The notes below the pieces were generated by a model that had not been told where the DNA came from, did no database searches, and was given only the letters and a program-made list of their open reading frames with translations. Shown here one piece after another: positions 13,648 through 21,325 of a stretch of DNA of 21,325 bases. Source of the DNA: Promethearchaeota archaeon (lineage in GTDB: Archaea > Asgardarchaeota > Lokiarchaeia > Sigyniarchaeales > SOKP01). The DNA is taken from NCBI GenBank assembly GCA_048940645.1, contig JBHLOI010000058.1, positions 1 to 21,325 on the forward strand. The letters run 5' to 3'. A program made the position numbers and the translations under genes. How positions within the stretch are numbered: the stretch's first letter is position 1; every line of letters begins with the position of its first letter.

Positions 13648-14436
13648 ATGAGTTATGAAGACATTATTTATGAGAAGAAAGACAGAATTGCACGTATAAC
13701 GATAAATCGCCCTGAACGATATAATGCTTGTACACAACATACCGTCCATGAATTAATTGATGCCTTCAATCGATGTATGGATCCTGAAATTGGCATAGTG
13801 GTTTTCACGGGTGTTGGAGATAAAGCTTTTTGCACAGGTGGTGATCAAACAACCCGAGAAAAAGGAGGATATAAGGGCGAATATATGTTGCCATTGGAAG
13901 TAGGTTGGCAACATGTAACTCATCAAATTCGTACCCTTCCCAAACCCGTTATTGCTCGTATAAACGGTTATGCAATAGGAGGAGGACATGTATGGCATGT
14001 AGTTTCTGATCTAAGTATTGCAGCTGAACATGCCCAAATAGGACAAGCAGGACCACGAGTAGGATCTTTTGATCCCGGGTATGGAACTGGGGATCTAATG
14101 CGTGCTGTAGGTATAAAGCGTGCCAAAGAGATATGGTATCTATGCCGTCGTTATACAGCAAAACAAGCACTCGAGATGGGACTTGTAAACGCTGTTGTAC
14201 CATATGAAAAGTTAGATGAAGAAATCGACCTTTGGTGCCAAGAAATCTTAGAAAAGAGCCCAACTGCATTAAAGATGCTTAAATATGCCTTTTTGGCTGA
14301 GAGTGATGGAACCACTGGCATTACACAATTAGGTGTTGGTGGACTTTCGCTCTATTATGGTACGGATGAAGCTGTTGAGGGAAAAAATGCATTTTTAGAA
14401 AAACGCAAACCCGATTTTAATCAGTTTAGGAAGTAA
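13648..14436 (+). CDS. menB: MenB/BadI-family crotonase (1,4-dihydroxy-2-naphthoyl-CoA synthase-like or 2-ketocyclohexanecarboxyl-CoA hydrolase-like)
   Basis: ITINRPE, AFCTGGDQ, GGY, GYAIGGGH, QAGPRVGSFDPGYG, EIWYLCR, LYY, EKRKPDF. The family is clear; the exact function is not. Confidence 0.75.
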   Translation: MSYEDIIYEKKDRIARITINRPERYNACTQHTVHELIDAFNRCMDPEIGIVVFTGVGDKAFCTGGDQTTREKGGYKGEYMLPLEVGWQHVTHQIRTLPKPVIARINGYAIGGGHVWHVVSDLSIAAEHAQIGQAGPRVGSFDPGYGTGDLMRAVGIKRAKEIWYLCRRYTAKQALEMGLVNAVVPYEKLDEEIDLWCQEILEKSPTALKMLKYAFLAESDGTTGITQLGVGGLSLYYGTDEAVEGKNAFLEKRKPDFNQFRK

Positions 14437-14518
14437 TGGTATTAAGTTACCTATTAAAAATAAATATGCTATTGGATATTTGTTTTAATAAATTAATTCT
14501 TTTTTTTAAAATTTTGAC

Positions 14519-15433
14519 TTATTTTGTTGGTTTTAAAAAATCAGAATCAAAATATTCTGGATTTGGGTATGTATAAAAGCCCTTACCAGATTTTACGCCA
14601 AGCTCACCTTTTCTAATCTTATCCATAAGTGCTTTTGGTGGGTGATCTTTTGGATCTTTAGAATCATTATAATATACCATTTCAATATCATAGACTACGT
14701 CTAATCCCACTTTATCCATGAGTCCAAACGGACCTTCTTTAGACCCTGTAAACACCATCCATGCACGATCAACATCCTTAAAATTAACAAAACCATTCCC
14801 CCACATGTAAAGTGTTTCACGCTTGATTGCTCTCCAAACACGATTAAAACAAAATCCTAATAATTCTTTTTTAACAGTGAGAGGAATGAAATTTAAGGAA
14901 CGAACCCACTCAACTCCTTTTGAGAAGACTTCAGGTAAAGTACGAGTTCCCCCCATTACATCAGCAATATTTAATCCTTGGAGAGGAAAGTAGAAATGAA
15001 TATTAAGACAGTATTCAGGGCGTCCACTACTTAACTCTAATCTAGAAACGGGTATTGAAGAACTATTTGTTGCGATAATAGCTTTAGACATTGCATTTTC
15101 CCCGATTTTCTTAAATATTTCTCGTTTAAGTTCAATTTTCTCTGGTACAGCTTCAATAATTAACTGTGCGTCTTTGACAATTTCTTCTATAGTTCTTTTT
15201 TGGAGTATTTTTTTTTGACATTCATCCCACTTATCCCACGGAATTAAAGGGCGTAAATTTTTACTCTTTAATTCTGAGCGAATTCTCTTGAAATTTTGTT
15301 TTAATGCACCTTCAACTGAGTCATAAGTTTGGATCTTATACCCATTATATGCTGCTATCATTGAAATCTGTGTTCCTAATACACCAGTGCCTATAACAGC
15401 AACTTTTTCAATCGGATTTGAAGTTTTGGTCAT
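14519..15433 (-). CDS. 3-hydroxyacyl-CoA dehydrogenase family protein
   Basis: VIGTGVLG Rossmann motif, IIEAVPE, ATNSSS, HFYFP, GFCFNR, GPFGLMDKVGLD, GVKSGKGFY. Confidence 0.9.
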   Translation of the reverse strand: MTKTSNPIEKVAVIGTGVLGTQISMIAAYNGYKIQTYDSVEGALKQNFKRIRSELKSKNLRPLIPWDKWDECQKKILQKRTIEEIVKDAQLIIEAVPEKIELKREIFKKIGENAMSKAIIATNSSSIPVSRLELSSGRPEYCLNIHFYFPLQGLNIADVMGGTRTLPEVFSKGVEWVRSLNFIPLTVKKELLGFCFNRVWRAIKRETLYMWGNGFVNFKDVDRAWMVFTGSKEGPFGLMDKVGLDVVYDIEMVYYNDSKDPKDHPPKALMDKIRKGELGVKSGKGFYTYPNPEYFDSDFLKPTK

Positions 15434-15554
15434 ATTATTATATTATCAAGGAATAATATAAAATTAATACTTTATTTGTTAAAAAATATCGAATTGATGG
15501 AAGAATCCATGTGCTGAAAGAAAAAACACCTAAGTTGATAGAAATTTTACTAAC

Positions 15555-16697
15555 TTAATTTAATTCTTCTCGCGCTATGATTAAATTCTGAATTTCAGAA
15601 GTTCCTCCTCCAATTTGGAAGAATTTTGCATCTCTCATATATCTTTCAACAGGGTACGTGTCTGTATAACCATCACCCCCATGGATCTGAACTGCTTCTG
15701 ATGTAATTTCTACTGCAGTCTTGCTTGAGAAAGCTTTTGCCATTGAAGCTTCTTTTGTGATATCAATTTTCTTTTCTTTTAATGCTGCTGCACTATATGC
15801 TAATAGTCTCGCTGCTTGAAGTTTTGTAGCCATATCCGCAATTTTTATTCTTATTAGTTGAAAGGAAGAAATGGGTTTATTAAATTGAATTCTATTTTTA
15901 GCGTAACTTTTAGAATCTTCTAGAGCTGCGATAGAAATTCCATTACACTCGGAACTTAGAGTTAATCTCTCTACGTTGAAAGTATCCATTAAACTCTGAA
16001 AACCTATTCCTTCTTCTCCTATAAGATTTTCTTTAGGTACTTCCACATCATTTAATTGAATAATTCCATTATATATTCCATTAACTCCCATTAATTCATA
16101 GGGATTTTCAATAGTTAAGCCGGGTGTATCTTTTTCGACTATGAACACACTCATACCATTTCGGGGATTAATGTTAGGATTTGTAATACTCCAGACAAAA
16201 TAATAATCTGCGATTCCTGCGTTAGTGATAAATTTTTTTGAACCATTTAAAACATAGAAATCCCCTGTCTTTTTTGCGATTGTTTTAATTCCTGCTACGT
16301 TCGAGCCAGCCTCTTCTTCAGTTACACATATGCTACAAATTTTTTCTCCTCTTGCGATTTTTTTTAAGAATGTGTTTTTCTGTTCTTCATTACCGTGTTC
16401 ATTTAAAAGGTATCCATCTAAAATGCAGGGTGTACGAGTAACTGACACTGCTACGTTAAGTCTGGAAATATTTTCTGTAATTTGGCAGTGTCCAACCATG
16501 CCTAAATCTGTACCACCATATTTTTCAGGGATTAAAGGTCCAAAATACCCCTCATTTCCCAATTTTCGAATTAAAGGAAGTGGAACTTTCTTTTGGTTAT
16601 TTATATCATTTTTTAACGGTTCTAATTCTTTAATTAAAAAGTTTTTAAGGTTTTCTTGTAATCTGTAATGTTTTTCTGTAAAGAATATATTGTTCAT
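15555..16697 (-). CDS. Acyl-CoA dehydrogenase (IVD/LCAD-type catalytic arrangement)
   Basis: [20 protein letters not shown]-x-[19 protein letters not shown]. There is no MCAD-type Glu; the candidate catalytic Glu is in VERL. Confidence 0.93.
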
Positions 16698-17412: not shown

Positions 17413-18483
17413 TTATCTAAGCTGAGCACCACAATGTGGGCAATATATTAGATTTTCTTCTCTATCTATCTTTTCACCACAATATCTGCAATAACTTGGG
17501 TTTTGATCTGTTTCTTCATTCGGTTTTCTTGAAACATATTTTTCTAATTTTTTGAGGCTTTCTTCTAACTCTATAATACTATTTAACATATCTGGATTAC
17601 TTTCCTCACTTTGCAATTTTACATATTCAGAAGATAATAAGTGGGATTCCATCAATTTGTCGGTTATTTTCCTCAATCTTTCGATCGCATTATTTAAAAT
17701 TCTCTTTCCGTAATCTAATCTTTGACGCTCTAATTGTATGAGCTTTTTTTCAATTTCTATTTTATGGATTCTTTTCTCTAATTTTCTAGTGTATGATAAT
17801 AATTCTTCTATAATTTCTCTATTTCTATTAAAATTTTTTCTATGGTCAATACTATTATTATATGATAAAATATTTCCCCATTCATCTAATTTTGCAATCC
17901 AATTATTAATTTTAAATCTAGTATCTTCGGTAATTCTAACGATTTCGTTTGGAGGTGTTGTTTTTTCAACAACTAATCTCATTAGTCCTGATTTATTATC
18001 AATTTTTGGTGATTTTCTGAATATTTTTACAATCTGATTAATTGGATTACTGGGATCGCTGATTTGAAAACCCTTCGCTAAAATGTCAATCACATCTCCT
18101 TTGACTACAGGTTTATCAATTAATATTAATTTAAGTACTTTGGAAAGGGTTATTAGATCTATATAAGTAAAAGTTGGAGTAAACTCAATTTCTTCAGCAG
18201 TAATTACAACTGTCTTTCTTATTTTAACAATTTCCCCAACTTTCACACCTGCATTCAATCGGAGAAGATCGTCTAATCTTATTATATTTGTCCCTTTATC
18301 TCCGATACTAGGCATAACTATTCCAGCTGTCCTCTTTTTACCTGTAATCTCAATAATACTTCCTGTTGATAAAAATAATCTGTCTACAACATATTGATCT
18401 ATATAACATAATGAGTGTCCAGCAGAATTATTTTGTAAAGCCTCAACCCTTAACCCACCACCCTCAAATCTCTGCCTTATCAA
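17413..18483 (-). CDS. Chimeric protein: Cdc48/p97/VAT N-domain (no AAA ATPase) + PAN-like coiled coil + C-terminal Zn ribbon
   Basis: aa 11-192 match the CDC48_N/CDC48_2 pattern (GSIIEITGKKRT, IIRLDDLLRLNAGVKVGEIVKI, PVVKGDVI, VVEKTTP, VRITEDT). No Walker A/B motifs. Coiled coil at aa 227-272; CRYC...CPHC at aa 332-351. Confidence 0.8.
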   Translation of the reverse strand: MIRQRFEGGGLRVEALQNNSAGHSLCYIDQYVVDRLFLSTGSIIEITGKKRTAGIVMPSIGDKGTNIIRLDDLLRLNAGVKVGEIVKIRKTVVITAEEIEFTPTFTYIDLITLSKVLKLILIDKPVVKGDVIDILAKGFQISDPSNPINQIVKIFRKSPKIDNKSGLMRLVVEKTTPPNEIVRITEDTRFKINNWIAKLDEWGNILSYNNSIDHRKNFNRNREIIEELLSYTRKLEKRIHKIEIEKKLIQLERQRLDYGKRILNNAIERLRKITDKLMESHLLSSEYVKLQSEESNPDMLNSIIELEESLKKLEKYVSRKPNEETDQNPSYCRYCGEKIDREENLIYCPHCGAQLR

Positions 18484-18680: not shown

Positions 18681-21325
18681 ATATCAATAGAAGTATTTGA
18701 GCCATTAAGTTCTCAACTTGGTATACCTGGGACTTCTTATAGGATTCAACTGGGATTAATTAATGGAAAATGGGCATCAAGACTCTTGAAAGGACAAAAT
18801 GTCATCGATTCATACATTTATAAGGATGAAGATATAGCAGAGGGGGGATTTCCTAATCAAAATATCATTGTAGGCTGGGTATTGCGTACTGTAGCCATTC
18901 CAAACATAAACCCACATCAAATAATGAAAACAACTCAGGCTTTAATGAAACAAGCAATCGAAAAGAAAGAACAAAAAAAGGTAATGGTTCCCGTAAAAGA
19001 AACTAAAAAGGTTGAATTAGAAAAAGTACCTGAAAGTTCTAGAGAATTACCATCTGAAATTAAAGTTGAACACATAGGAAATAATAATCGTGAAGATAAT
19101 TTATTAATAAAATTATTAAAAGAAAAAGATGAAGAGTTTGAACAATTAAAACTTGAATATGAACTATTAAATCAAGAATTAAGATCAGGTAAACCATCAT
19201 TTGAAATTCAATCAGAAGGTAATCTGGGTAACAAAGAACGGATATTGAATCTCCTTAAATCAAAATATCTAACCAGCAATGAAATTGCTGAAAGACTTAG
19301 TTTAAGTAAACAAGATACTCGCACTTATCTTCAAAGACTTAAAGCAGAAGACAAAATCAAGGTTATTGATAAAAAGGGGCGATTTTTAGTTTATGCCTTA
19401 AAGAAACCTATTAGTTCAGCAAAAGAACACTATGCGCCCGAATCCTTAGAATATGATTTAAGTTATTTACTCAATCTGATAGAGATGAAAATGACTCCTA
19501 AGGATGGTGTGAAATTCACTCCAATTGATCTCATGCATATCAAAAAAATCGAAAAACGAATTGCAGATAAAAAATGGGAAAACAAGCAAGAAATAAAAGC
19601 CCTAAGAGAATTAATCGACTTTGAAAAGACCTATAAAGAAGAAATAGATGAAAAGTTGGCTGAACTGGAAGCAAGAGTTAATTATATTGCATCTGGAGTA
19701 GAATTAAAACAAAAAGTAATAGAACAAAAAGAAGAAGAGGGATTCAGGGCAGCCAAAAATCAAGTATCCACTGAAGCGATTTATAAGGTTATAGTAATCG
19801 GTGACCCTGCTGTGGGAAAAACAGAACTTCTTAAAAAGTTTGCGACTAGAGCATTTGAGGAAAGGTATCTTCCTACTGTTGGTGTTAATATTTTGAAAGA
19901 ATCTATTAATTTAGATGATTTGAATGCCACAGTAAATTTAATGTTCTGGGATGTGCCAGGGCAACCTCAATTTTATATGCTCTATCGACCGTATTTTAAT
20001 GGAGCAGATGGTATGATCTTAACTTTCGATATAACTCGTTCAAGTACGTTTAGCAATATTAACAATTGGTATTCGACTGCTATAAAATACGGATTAAGCG
20101 GAATTCCTAGAATCTTAGTTGGAATTAAAAAGGAGTTAAACTCAGAAGAGCAACGCAAAATAATTTTACCCATGGCTGAGCATTTAAGTGAAAAACTCAA
20201 TGCGCCATATTTTGAAGTGTCTCTTGATACTGGAGAAAATGTTGAGCTCATTTTTCAAACTATTGCAGAATTAGTTCATAGATATAAAAATGGCGAAAAT
20301 TGGAACGTTCATGGCATTGAACAAAAAATAGCAGCAGTTCCAGAAACCCCTTCTATAAAGTCACCTGAACCTAAACCCGCTTCCGTGATATCTGAAAAAA
20401 TTCCAATCGCCTTAAAAGAAAGTCCAATTTTTCCATCATCATTCCAATCATCTCACATATCAAGTAGTCAATCCTTCGTCAATTATATGCCACAAACTAT
20501 TTCATCAAAGAAATTAGATGAATTACGATGTCAATATTGTGGTTATATTATTTTAAAACCTTATCCTAAAGATCAACTCTGCCCTAAATGTAGGAAATTT
20601 CTTCCTGAGTTATATAAATATGTAAATAATTCAGAAGTAGAAGGAAAAAAGGAGCCCAAACAGTTTAAGACTAAAACTTCAACTCTTAGTTCAAAATTTC
20701 AAGGAAAAATTAAAGTTAAAACAAAAGCAGAATCATTTTCAGTTGAAGATGAGATTATTTATTTAAAAAATGAAGAGGAATACGTTAAATTTTTAGGTAT
20801 CACCTCTGTAGAAAGAACTCCGTTATTTAATAATAATCATCGATATAAATATCTTTTAGAATTGACAAATAACTTAGATTACATTGCAACAAGTATTCTG
20901 GGTGGAGAATTAGATAAAATGCTTCTTATTACCGATAAAAACATCGAAGAAAAGTGTCATTTCTATGTTAAGGATGAAATCATATATATTGTATATGGAG
21001 TCTTTCCTGATAAAAAAGGTAAATGGATGCTTGAGCAAATGGCAAACTATTATTCTGAATTAGTTCGTGGTAAGGATGTAAATAATTTATCTAAACTTGA
21101 AAAAAGTAATATTAACCATAAATTCATAGGGCTTCTTAAGTTCATGTTAAATGAGTATCTAGGTTTACAAGAAGTATTTACAGATCAAGAGATTCCTTAC
21201 CTTGAAGATTGGATTAGAGTTGATTATGTAGGATTATCTTCAATGTCAATAGGGGTAATATCACTCCTTTTAGATGAAGAAGGAAATCTAAATGTGGAGG
21301 TGACTGGAGAATTTGATAATCACGC
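18681..21325 (+). CDS. Giant multidomain protein (>880 aa, runs off the window): unknown N-domain - coil - winged HTH - coil - Rab-like small GTPase - Pro/Ser linker - Zn ribbon - longin-like domain(s)
   Basis: Not in the ORF track because there is no stop in the window. Manual translation is open from 18681 (after TAA 18678-18680) to the end. wHTH about 19230-19400 (KERILNLLKSKYLTSNEIAERLSLSKQDTRTYLQRLKAEDKIKV...GRFLVY); GTPase about 19782-20280 (YKVIVIGDPAVGKT, YLPTVGV, WDVPGQ); CQYC...CPKC at 20529-20591; longin-like about 20781-21160. Confidence 0.88.
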   Translation, partial: MSIEVFEPLSSQLGIPGTSYRIQLGLINGKWASRLLKGQNVIDSYIYKDEDIAEGGFPNQNIIVGWVLRTVAIPNINPHQIMKTTQALMKQAIEKKEQKKVMVPVKETKKVELEKVPESSRELPSEIKVEHIGNNNREDNLLIKLLKEKDEEFEQLKLEYELLNQELRSGKPSFEIQSEGNLGNKERILNLLKSKYLTSNEIAERLSLSKQDTRTYLQRLKAEDKIKVIDKKGRFLVYALKKPISSAKEHYAPESLEYDLSYLLNLIEMKMTPKDGVKFTPIDLMHIKKIEKRIADKKWENKQEIKALRELIDFEKTYKEEIDEKLAELEARVNYIASGVELKQKVIEQKEEEGFRAAKNQVSTEAIYKVIVIGDPAVGKTELLKKFATRAFEERYLPTVGVNILKESINLDDLNATVNLMFWDVPGQPQFYMLYRPYFNGADGMILTFDITRSSTFSNINNWYSTAIKYGLSGIPRILVGIKKELNSEEQRKIILPMAEHLSEKLNAPYFEVSLDTGENVELIFQTIAELVHRYKNGENWNVHGIEQKIAAVPETPSIKSPEPKPASVISEKIPIALKESPIFPSSFQSSHISSSQSFVNYMPQTISSKKLDELRCQYCGYIILKPYPKDQLCPKCRKFLPELYKYVNNSEVEGKKEPKQFKTKTSTLSSKFQGKIKVKTKAESFSVEDEIIYLKNEEEYVKFLGITSVERTPLFNNNHRYKYLLELTNNLDYIATSILGGELDKMLLITDKNIEEKCHFYVKDEIIYIVYGVFPDKKGKWMLEQMANYYSELVRGKDVNNLSKLEKSNINHKFIGLLKFMLNEYLGLQEVFTDQEIPYLEDWIRVDYVGLSSMSIGVISLLLDEEGNLNVEVTGEFDNH

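Follow-up and report, generated by a model that had tools for sequence, protein, structure and literature searches.

Pseudo-GTPases and longin-based Rab exchange factors have both been treated as regulatory inventions of eukaryotes, the former exemplified by CENP-M, the pG domains of p190RhoGAP and AAGAB. The pseudoGTPases are by now a known eukaryotic class (PMC10211241), whose members keep the GTPase fold while their nucleotide-binding motifs are degenerate, and which serve as interaction modules. Here we describe a candidate pseudoGTPase from an archaeon, a Rab-like domain in the interior of a multidomain protein of Promethearchaeota archaeon (assembly GCA_048940645.1). The window analysed is 21,325 nucleotides long and is the entire contig JBHLOI010000058.1 (C112). 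The assembly to which it belongs comprises 3.83 Mb, has a G+C content of 29% and yields 82 matches to the Ras family, which is characteristic of an Asgard (Promethearchaeota-type) archaeon. Like the eukaryotic proteins, the domain retains the GTPase fold and has degenerate nucleotide-binding motifs, and the same role as an interaction module is proposed for it below. Unlike them, it is archaeal, it has diverged by about 23% from a canonical paralog in the same genome, and its phosphate-binding motifs are intact. Furthermore, all fused copies of its family that were examined are degenerate, each lineage in a different manner.

Combinations of small GTPases with longin or roadblock domains are known from Asgard archaea, and according to passages of Tran et al. 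2024 (PMC10933270) they make up 26 of the 74 GTPase-related sequences of MK-D1. The protein described here comes from the same organism group and shares the association of a GTPase with such domains. The architectures in the passages concerned are mostly Rag/Arf-like and degenerate G motifs go unmentioned there, whereas in the present protein a Rab-like domain lies between a winged helix with a coiled coil on one side and a Zn ribbon with two longin domains on the other. Neither pseudoGTPases nor tri-longin proteins of archaea, Asgard or other, turned up in the literature searched. Set against the Asgard fusions in those passages (PMC10933270) and the eukaryotic pseudoGTPases (PMC10211241), the protein is an archaeal variant of known systems.

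A further related system comes from the laboratory. [quoted passage not shown] An earlier note on this stretch of DNA, made from the letters alone, had named an Asn to Ile change as the one that makes Rabs nucleotide-free and GEF-sequestering, and the literature bears this out (PMC5216073; the Rab1 chain of PDB entry 2wwx). Both engineered proteins carry, in a Rab-type fold, the same replacement of the first Asn of the G4 motif as the domain described here. They are single laboratory substitutions, whereas the archaeal domain is natural, has the additional changes Asp to Glu, Thr to Val and Ala to Leu and an insertion of two residues, and is conserved in a clade under purifying selection.

A Rab-like domain altered at its base-recognition motifs

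The gene and the motifs of the domain are as follows (window positions, with residue numbers of the encoded protein).

18786-21323, forward strand: multidomain gene, a reading frame open over 846 codons and cut by the contig end
19785-20276, forward strand: Rab-like GTPase-fold domain (residues 334-497), candidate pseudoGTPase, matched by Pfam Ras PF00071
19800-19826, forward strand: G1 P-loop GDPAVGKT (residues 339-346; 19800-19823), intact, then Glu347 where the canonical family has Ser after GKT
19866-19886, forward strand: G2/switch I motif YLPTVGV, conserved Thr intact
19947-19964, forward strand: G3 motif WDVPGQ, with Asp, Gly and Gln intact and Ala replaced by Pro
20121-20135, forward strand: G4 motif and alignment, GIKKE (residues 446-450) for GNKxD, Asn to Ile447 and Asp to Glu450
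20139-20144, forward strand: two-residue insertion Asn-Ser after G4 (alignment), common to what we call the GI+2 clade
20214-20228, forward strand: G5 motif and alignment, EVSLD (residues 477-481) for ETSAL, Thr to Val478, Ala to Leu480 and Leu to Asp481

The Pfam Ras profile covers the domain from position 1 to 160 of its 162 positions, scoring 124.5 bits where the cut-off is 21.6 (E 3.8e-36); a match of this strength marks a genuine GTPase-fold domain and no chance string of motifs. TIGR00231 matches as well (E 2.8e-22). The C-terminus missing from the window is supplied by P0003, a protein of 959 amino acids from a longer contig that differs by 2 residues over the overlap of 846 amino acids. 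From P0003 the order of parts is winged helix, coiled coil, Rab-like domain, Zn ribbon and tandem longin module.

The earlier note had read the motifs as GDPAVGKT followed by Glu, YLPTVGV, WDVPGQ, GIKKE and EVSLD, and on recomputation all of these readings and their coordinates are exact. The register of G4 and G5 was established with HMMER against solved Rab1 and Thorarchaeota Rab chains, in which LVGIKKEL of the domain corresponds to LVGNKCDL of Rab1, and EVSLD to ETSAK. In Ras numbering these segments are N116-K117-C118-D119 and E143-T144-S145-A146-K147 (PMC6695279). The best sequence match in the PDB is the Thorarchaeota Rab 7ezb (E 2.3e-29), and the second best is the Rab1 chain 2wwx_A, which itself reads GIKCDL and is aligned to GIKKEL of the domain. 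Of the signatures of a guanine-binding GTPase, the domain has G1 (GxxxxGK[ST]), the G2 Thr and G3 (DxxG), and lacks G4 ([NT]KxD, here IKKE) and G5 (SA[KL], here SLD with a Val before it). The prenylatable C-terminal Cys of the Rab family is also absent, the domain being internal to its protein, and Rab-like is therefore the safer term. No Cys was seen either at the ends of the stand-alone relatives that were read (the paralog on contig C122, P0033, P0034 and P0043).

The domain is no generic Rab paralog. Just one other gene in the same genome is close to it, encoding a stand-alone protein of 185 amino acids on contig C122, which is 77% identical to the domain and fully canonical (GDPAVGKTS, YLPTVGV, WDVAGQ, GNKIDL and ETSAL). 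The approximately 80 remaining Ras-like genes of the genome are at most 37% identical to the domain. G1 to G5 are invariant in 112 stand-alone members of this family (185-191 amino acids), and 105 columns of their alignment show an invariance of at least 97% across these canonical proteins. The changes Ser to Glu after GKT, Ala to Pro in G3, Asn to Ile and Asp to Glu in G4, and Thr to Val and Ala to Leu in G5 all fall on such columns.

The distribution of the changes over the invariant columns is selective. The domain is changed in 4 of the 6 base-recognition columns (G4 Asn, Lys and Asp; G5 Thr, Ser and Ala), in 0 of the 11 phosphate/Mg columns (P-loop, switch I Thr; G3 Asp, Gly and Gln) and in 7 of the 88 other columns, a contrast between column classes with a Fisher p of 9e-4. 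The four base-site changes are Asn to Ile, Asp to Glu, Thr to Val and Ala to Leu. Identity to the canonical paralog is 91% in beta4-alpha3-beta5, 85% from beta1 to alpha1, 79% from switch I to switch II and 67% from G4 to G5; hardly anything has changed in the fold, in the switch regions or on the alpha3-beta5 face. This pattern is the opposite of uniform decay: in the comparison with relatives that the earlier note proposed as a check, the substitutions do cluster on base-recognition residues.

One peculiarity of the P-loop is family-wide. GDPAVGKT has Pro and Ala at the positions of Gly12 and Gly13 of Ras, both invariant in the canonical stand-alone proteins, and an unusual mechanism of intrinsic hydrolysis may go with these residues.

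The Ile-type clade and fused copies across the family

The stand-alone family is widespread in Asgard archaea. Database matches about 72-82% identical to the domain carry the labels Loki-, Thor-, Hermod- and Hodarchaeota, and of the 134 species genomes of the taxonomic family, 115 yielded the canonical stand-alone gene. In four congeneric genomes (L069, L071, L073 and L080) a second stand-alone paralog of 189 amino acids, with Asp57 replaced by Glu (WEVAGQ), is placed in tandem with the canonical gene at a distance of a few hundred bases.

The changes Asn to Ile, Thr to Val and Ala to Leu and the two-residue insertion are not confined to the protein in the window and P0003. They are common to P0033 (192 amino acids, 90% identical over the 191-amino-acid region searched), P0034 (191 amino acids), P0043 (190 amino acids), the first domain of the tandem-GTPase protein P0004, P0026, P0027 and a protein of 282 amino acids from a different species of the genus (genome G313). 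P0033 and P0034 lie within their contigs as complete stand-alone genes, without a longin domain, and P0043 is stand-alone in length. The altered pocket is thus no by-product of fusion.

Over the 165-codon core, the ratio of non-synonymous to synonymous substitution rates (dN/dS) is 0.16 against the closest relative P0033 (dN 0.038, dS 0.237), which argues for a selected change rather than decay; comparisons with more distant members, for which dS is saturated, gave 0.05-0.15. An intact P-loop, switch I Thr and G3 DxxGQ are found in the domain, P0033, P0004 and P0043. Elsewhere in the clade they have eroded: the second P-loop Gly is replaced by Asp in P0034, and in P0026 and P0027 part of the P-loop is deleted and the switch I Thr is gone. 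As read from these sequences, this suggests that phosphate binding is not indispensable either in the Ile-type clade.

In a free tree computed without the G-motif columns, the domain groups with P0033 (support 97), the remainder is unresolved and the Ile-type clade is not recovered. Constraining the seven Ile-type proteins to monophyly, again with these columns excluded, gives a log-likelihood 3.4 higher than that of the free tree and is not rejected (p 0.55 in the approximately unbiased test). The conflict is partly explained by P0034 being recombinant or chimeric. This protein (L091:320-898 and L092:50-625 compared) has 93% nucleotide identity to P0033 in its C-half and 72% in its N-half, and the domain in the window (19785-20276) is likewise uneven, with 98% identity to P0033 in the N-half and 88% in the C-half. 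Such mosaics point to gene conversion or recombination between paralogs, or to chimeric short contigs. No match above 81% identity to the domain was found in 40 congeneric genomes, and an order-wide search with the segment from G4 to alpha5 returned one further Ile-type copy only, that of G313.

Beyond this clade, loss of canonical motifs accompanies fusion throughout the family. Among the 165 family domains collected, all key positions are canonical in 112 of the 121 in proteins of up to 200 amino acids and in 0 of the 44 in longer proteins, a count in which part of the short entries may be fragmentary. Species genomes of the genus, sampled independently, gave the same picture, with about 30 canonical stand-alone copies and 0 of 8 canonical domains in longer proteins. 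There is thus a general association of fusion with loss of the canonical motifs. The residue after GKT is Ser in 117 of the 121 short proteins and Glu in 30 of the 44 long ones.

The lesions themselves differ by lineage. Besides the Ile type, there are copies in which the Asp of G4 is lost (GNKAHL, GNNLHL, GNKVNP), copies in which the Mg-ligand Ser/Thr is lost (GKR, GKM, GKG) and copies in which Asp57 is lost (WNIAGQ, WVIHGQ, WIIAGQ), and every key site has undergone at least 8-12 changes of state on the tree. In the set of 53 non-canonical domains, lesions are at D119 in 34, A146 in 36, D57 in 20, T35 in 15 and S/T17 in 13, and at the catalytic Gln in only 8. That the positions holding nucleotide and Mg are hit and the Gln is mostly spared indicates a trend to weaker nucleotide binding and not to a GTP-locked state. 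Even a positional ortholog can be altered at other sites. P0006, which is syntenic and 67% identical through the winged helix, coiled coil and GTPase domain, keeps NKxD and SAx and carries GKR and WVIQGQ instead.

P0002 and P0032 (L120:1898-3280, forward strand) each contain two tandem family domains, both degenerate. The first domain has GDPASEKT and GNKINL in P0002 and WIVTGQ in P0032, while the motifs of the second domains read WVIGAV or WVIGEV, and GNSINL or GNRLNL.

Possible roles of the altered domain

The domain has a GTPase fold, has lost the canonical G4 and G5 motifs and is kept by selection, the features by which a pseudoGTPase is recognised. The selective lesions, the conservation in the clade and the purifying selection (dN/dS of 0.16) also make candidate pseudoGTPase, the term of the earlier note, a fair label. 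On balance, the domain is probably a selectively maintained Rab-like pseudoGTPase, or at most a binder of nucleotides with very low affinity and no specificity for guanine, derived from the conserved stand-alone Asgard small GTPase. Its affinity and specificity for guanine nucleotides have presumably been lost to a large extent. Ile447 and Val478 would replace by a hydrophobic pair the polar Asn-Thr contact of Ras structures at these positions of G4 and G5, and Leu480 would fill the base pocket. The domain might then rest in a state like the nucleotide-free, exchange-factor-engaged form of its canonical paralog. Instead of a timed switch it would be a nucleotide-independent binding module, in which the partner surface of the family is kept and coupled to the fused winged helix, coiled coil, Zn ribbon and tandem longin platform, beside the gene of a Cdc48-N adaptor.

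Several points weigh against this. The domain retains its P-loop, switch I Thr and DxxGQ, as expected if phosphate binding still matters. Single substitutions of N116 or A146 in Ras lead to fast exchange and not to an empty protein, and at cellular nucleotide levels the domain could stay loaded. The supposed Ile-Val pairing and the filling of the pocket by Leu are deduced from the sequence and from a contact in Ras rather than read off coordinates. The Ile-type clade is rare, occurring only in the genome of the window and one other among 154 species genomes of the order, and is a small evolutionary sample. Finally, the counts of fused and stand-alone copies are not phylogenetically independent.

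Alternatively, the domain could be a working nucleoside triphosphatase whose base specificity is altered or relaxed, or a GTPase that exchanges fast and independently of a GEF; its phosphate-binding and catalytic residues would still act, and only the reading of the base would have changed. This is a tentative alternative with a smaller but real chance of being right. It fits the intact G1, G2 Thr and DxxGQ of the domain, P0033, P0004 and P0043, and the purifying selection across the entire core. There are also parallels for it, as Ras N116I and A146T exchange fast yet stay loaded with nucleotide in cells, and YchF/OLA1, whose motif is NxxE, binds ATP. Here, however, three residues of the base pocket have changed together, two of them to bulky hydrophobics, and members of the clade have lost the P-loop or the switch I Thr (P0034, P0026/27, P0007). 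Moreover, sister fused lineages destroy Mg and phosphate ligands (GKR; D57 to Asn or Val), and a general loss of the cycle fits these lesions better than a new specificity. It is rather doubtful that the domain is instead a natural GEF trap acting in cis, an Ile-type domain docked permanently on its own longin platform, or one that sequesters the exchange factor of the canonical paralog, which is the dominant-negative idea of the earlier note. The attraction of this idea is that Asn to Ile is the laboratory GEF-trap mutation, that the protein has two longin domains whose best multi-domain PDB matches are subunits of Rab GEFs, that 4 of 12 proteins bearing the module also have a small-GTPase domain, and that the switch regions are nearly identical to those of the canonical paralog. 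The tether as such is nevertheless not needed for the lesions, since the same set occurs in stand-alone proteins of 190-192 amino acids without a longin domain, and P0152, closely related to the scaffold, bears the longin module but lacks a GTPase domain. In addition, the module has no known GEF activity and no significant match to a longin or Mon1 family at the sequence level.

Neutral decay of a redundant duplicate, or an error of sequencing or assembly, is very improbable. The gene is rare, its scaffold occurring in 1 of 40 congeneric genomes, and it has the look of a young mosaic, with the N-half of the domain 98% and its C-half 88% identical in nucleotides to P0033, and a longin module 92% identical to the copy on contig C103. 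Both explanations were rejected, as dN/dS is 0.16, the substitutions are selective and not uniform, the same residues recur in independent metagenome contigs and in another genome, and the frame is open over 846 codons.

A wider but unlikely proposal is that natural GEF-trap Rabs evolved in Asgard archaea. The Ile/Val/Leu variant would be a permanently nucleotide-free mimic of the canonical switch that docks on a tandem longin platform resembling Mon1/Ccz1, within the same chain in this protein (in cis) and in trans in the case of the stand-alone forms, and fusion would generally go with loss of the switch cycle. If true, this would be a prokaryotic precedent for Rab exchange-factor complexes of the longin type as well as for pseudoGTPases as their regulators. 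The family amounts to a natural experiment in the closest prokaryotic relatives of eukaryotes: one conserved Rab-like switch, of which all fused copies examined have lost a canonical G motif, and one lineage that repeats, beside a tandem longin module, the exact laboratory mutation that freezes Rab-GEF complexes. The questions raised are whether Asgard longins act on Rab-like GTPases, whether nucleotide-independent GTPase scaffolds predate eukaryotes, and which surface of the family is under selection. All three are testable, because the system is small and soluble and has an internal control in the canonical, 77%-identical paralog of the same genome.

Tandem longin module, scaffold and neighbouring genes

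The other parts of the gene and its divergent neighbour are as follows.

19233-19361, forward strand: winged helix-turn-helix (residues 150-192), Pfam HTH_24 E 5.7e-5 and FaeA E 1.3e-4
20529-20591, forward strand: Zn ribbon CxxC-x12-CxxC (residues 582-602), by motif and by Zn_Ribbon_1 matches in homologs
20757-21164, forward strand: predicted longin domain 1 (residues 658-793 of P0003), AlphaFold2 model and structural match to Mon1
21213-21323, forward strand: start of predicted longin domain 2 (residues 810-951 of P0003, the rest past the contig end), AlphaFold2 model and matches to longins of the TRAPP/sedlin/zeta-COP type
17413-18483, reverse strand: divergently transcribed neighbour gene with Cdc48 N-domain, coiled coil and Zn ribbon, Pfam CDC48_N E 2.9e-17

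Residues 600-959 have no Pfam match at E up to 10 and no NCBIfam match, and a Pfam scan of 40 homologs of the module gave nothing significant, with isolated weak matches to Sedlin_N (0.033) and Longin (0.12). An AlphaFold2 model of the C-terminal 308 amino acids, built from an alignment of 40 sequences including distant homologs, has a mean predicted local distance difference test score (pLDDT) of 92 and a predicted template modelling score of 0.89; an alignment of 12 sequences for the same region gave a pLDDT of 42.5 and was unusable. The model has two units of longin topology, at residues 7-142 (with an extra N-terminal strand) and 159-300, in both of which the order beta-beta-alpha-beta-beta-beta-alpha-alpha is found.

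The best 13 PDB matches of the module in Foldseek are all subunits of BLOC-3, CPLANE Fuzzy/Inturned or Mon1-Ccz1 (E 3.8e-5 to 7.5e-4, probability 0.97-1.00), with global TM-scores of only 0.24-0.31 and a root-mean-square deviation (rmsd) of about 20 A, so that the likeness lies in the serial arrangement of longins. With an exhaustive structural aligner, domain 1 is most similar to Mon1 (9rs7_A, Z 8.3, rmsd 3.0, 127 residues aligned) and domain 2 to longins of the TRAPP/sedlin/zeta-COP type (Z 6.0-6.5). The top 50 structural matches are nearly all longin or roadblock proteins and the atlas matches agree, while the ESM Atlas feature search gave a weak lead only (0.81, Roadblock/LAMTOR2).

The tri-longin Rab GEFs (Mon1-Ccz1, Fuzzy-Inturned/CPLANE with RSG1, and BLOC-3) are thus the best structural matches of the module, but they have three longin domains per subunit where the model holds two, and none is significantly matched at the sequence level. 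Of the tether to a GEF-type longin domain put forward in the earlier note, the longin part stands, since the downstream region is predicted to fold as two such domains. Judged from the model, longin is right at the level of the fold, and membership of the tri-longin GEF family is not established. A complex prediction of the module with the GTPase domain gave a score of 0.00 in a run without controls, which counts neither for nor against binding.

The module is conserved in the order. In a phylum-wide sample, it was matched in 65 of 68 genomes of the window's family, in 6 of 7 of a sister family and in 0 outside these. It is mostly a separate gene of about 390 codons, and the copy on contig C103 of the same genome is 92% identical to the module described here. 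In the stand-alone genes for Zn ribbon and tandem longin module (L095:1084-2268, reverse strand, C103; L031:1498-2680, reverse strand) the frame from stop to stop has about 392 codons. The first ATG, GTG or TTG comes only after the Zn ribbon (codon 128 in C103), yet the ribbon is conserved in frame; these reading frames may reflect an unusual start or a wrong gene model.

The scaffold carries varied inserts elsewhere. A small-GTPase domain is also present in 4 of the 12 module-bearing proteins; in P0154 and P0156 it is a canonical Rab-like domain of another subfamily, and P0152, P0153 and P0155 have no insert. The one congeneric genome, among 40, with the winged-helix scaffold is G141, where TPR-like repeats replace the GTPase. 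In view of these inserts, the gene in the window is a rare and probably young mosaic. In P0158, a metagenome protein of 986 amino acids, a gelsolin repeat (Pfam E 3.8e-6) takes the place that the GTPase domain has here.

The divergent neighbour lacks an AAA domain. Along its entire length it shares 49% identity with the C-terminal 355 amino acids of P0008, in which a GTPase domain of the family, with Asp57 replaced by Asn, is fused ahead of the Cdc48-N part. The divergent pair of a Cdc48-N gene and a winged-helix/GTPase gene recurs at the syntenic P0006 locus (L116), where the flanking genes are as in the window: enoyl-CoA hydratase, 3-hydroxyacyl-CoA dehydrogenase, acyl-CoA dehydrogenase and the divergent Cdc48-N gene. 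Roadblock domains are fused to a GTPase of the family in P0013, and a roadblock gene follows P0004; the roadblock protein beside P0004 has no sequence similarity to the longin module. Through its fusions and neighbours, the family is linked with Cdc48-N adaptors as well as with longin/roadblock platforms.

Among the further proteins in which the Cdc48-N ortholog is fused behind degenerate GTPase copies of the family are P0010 and P0014. At positions 13648-16697 of the window, the genes for enoyl-CoA hydratase, 3-hydroxyacyl-CoA dehydrogenase and acyl-CoA dehydrogenase form a cluster that is syntenic with L116:1591-4398, on a distant metagenome contig.

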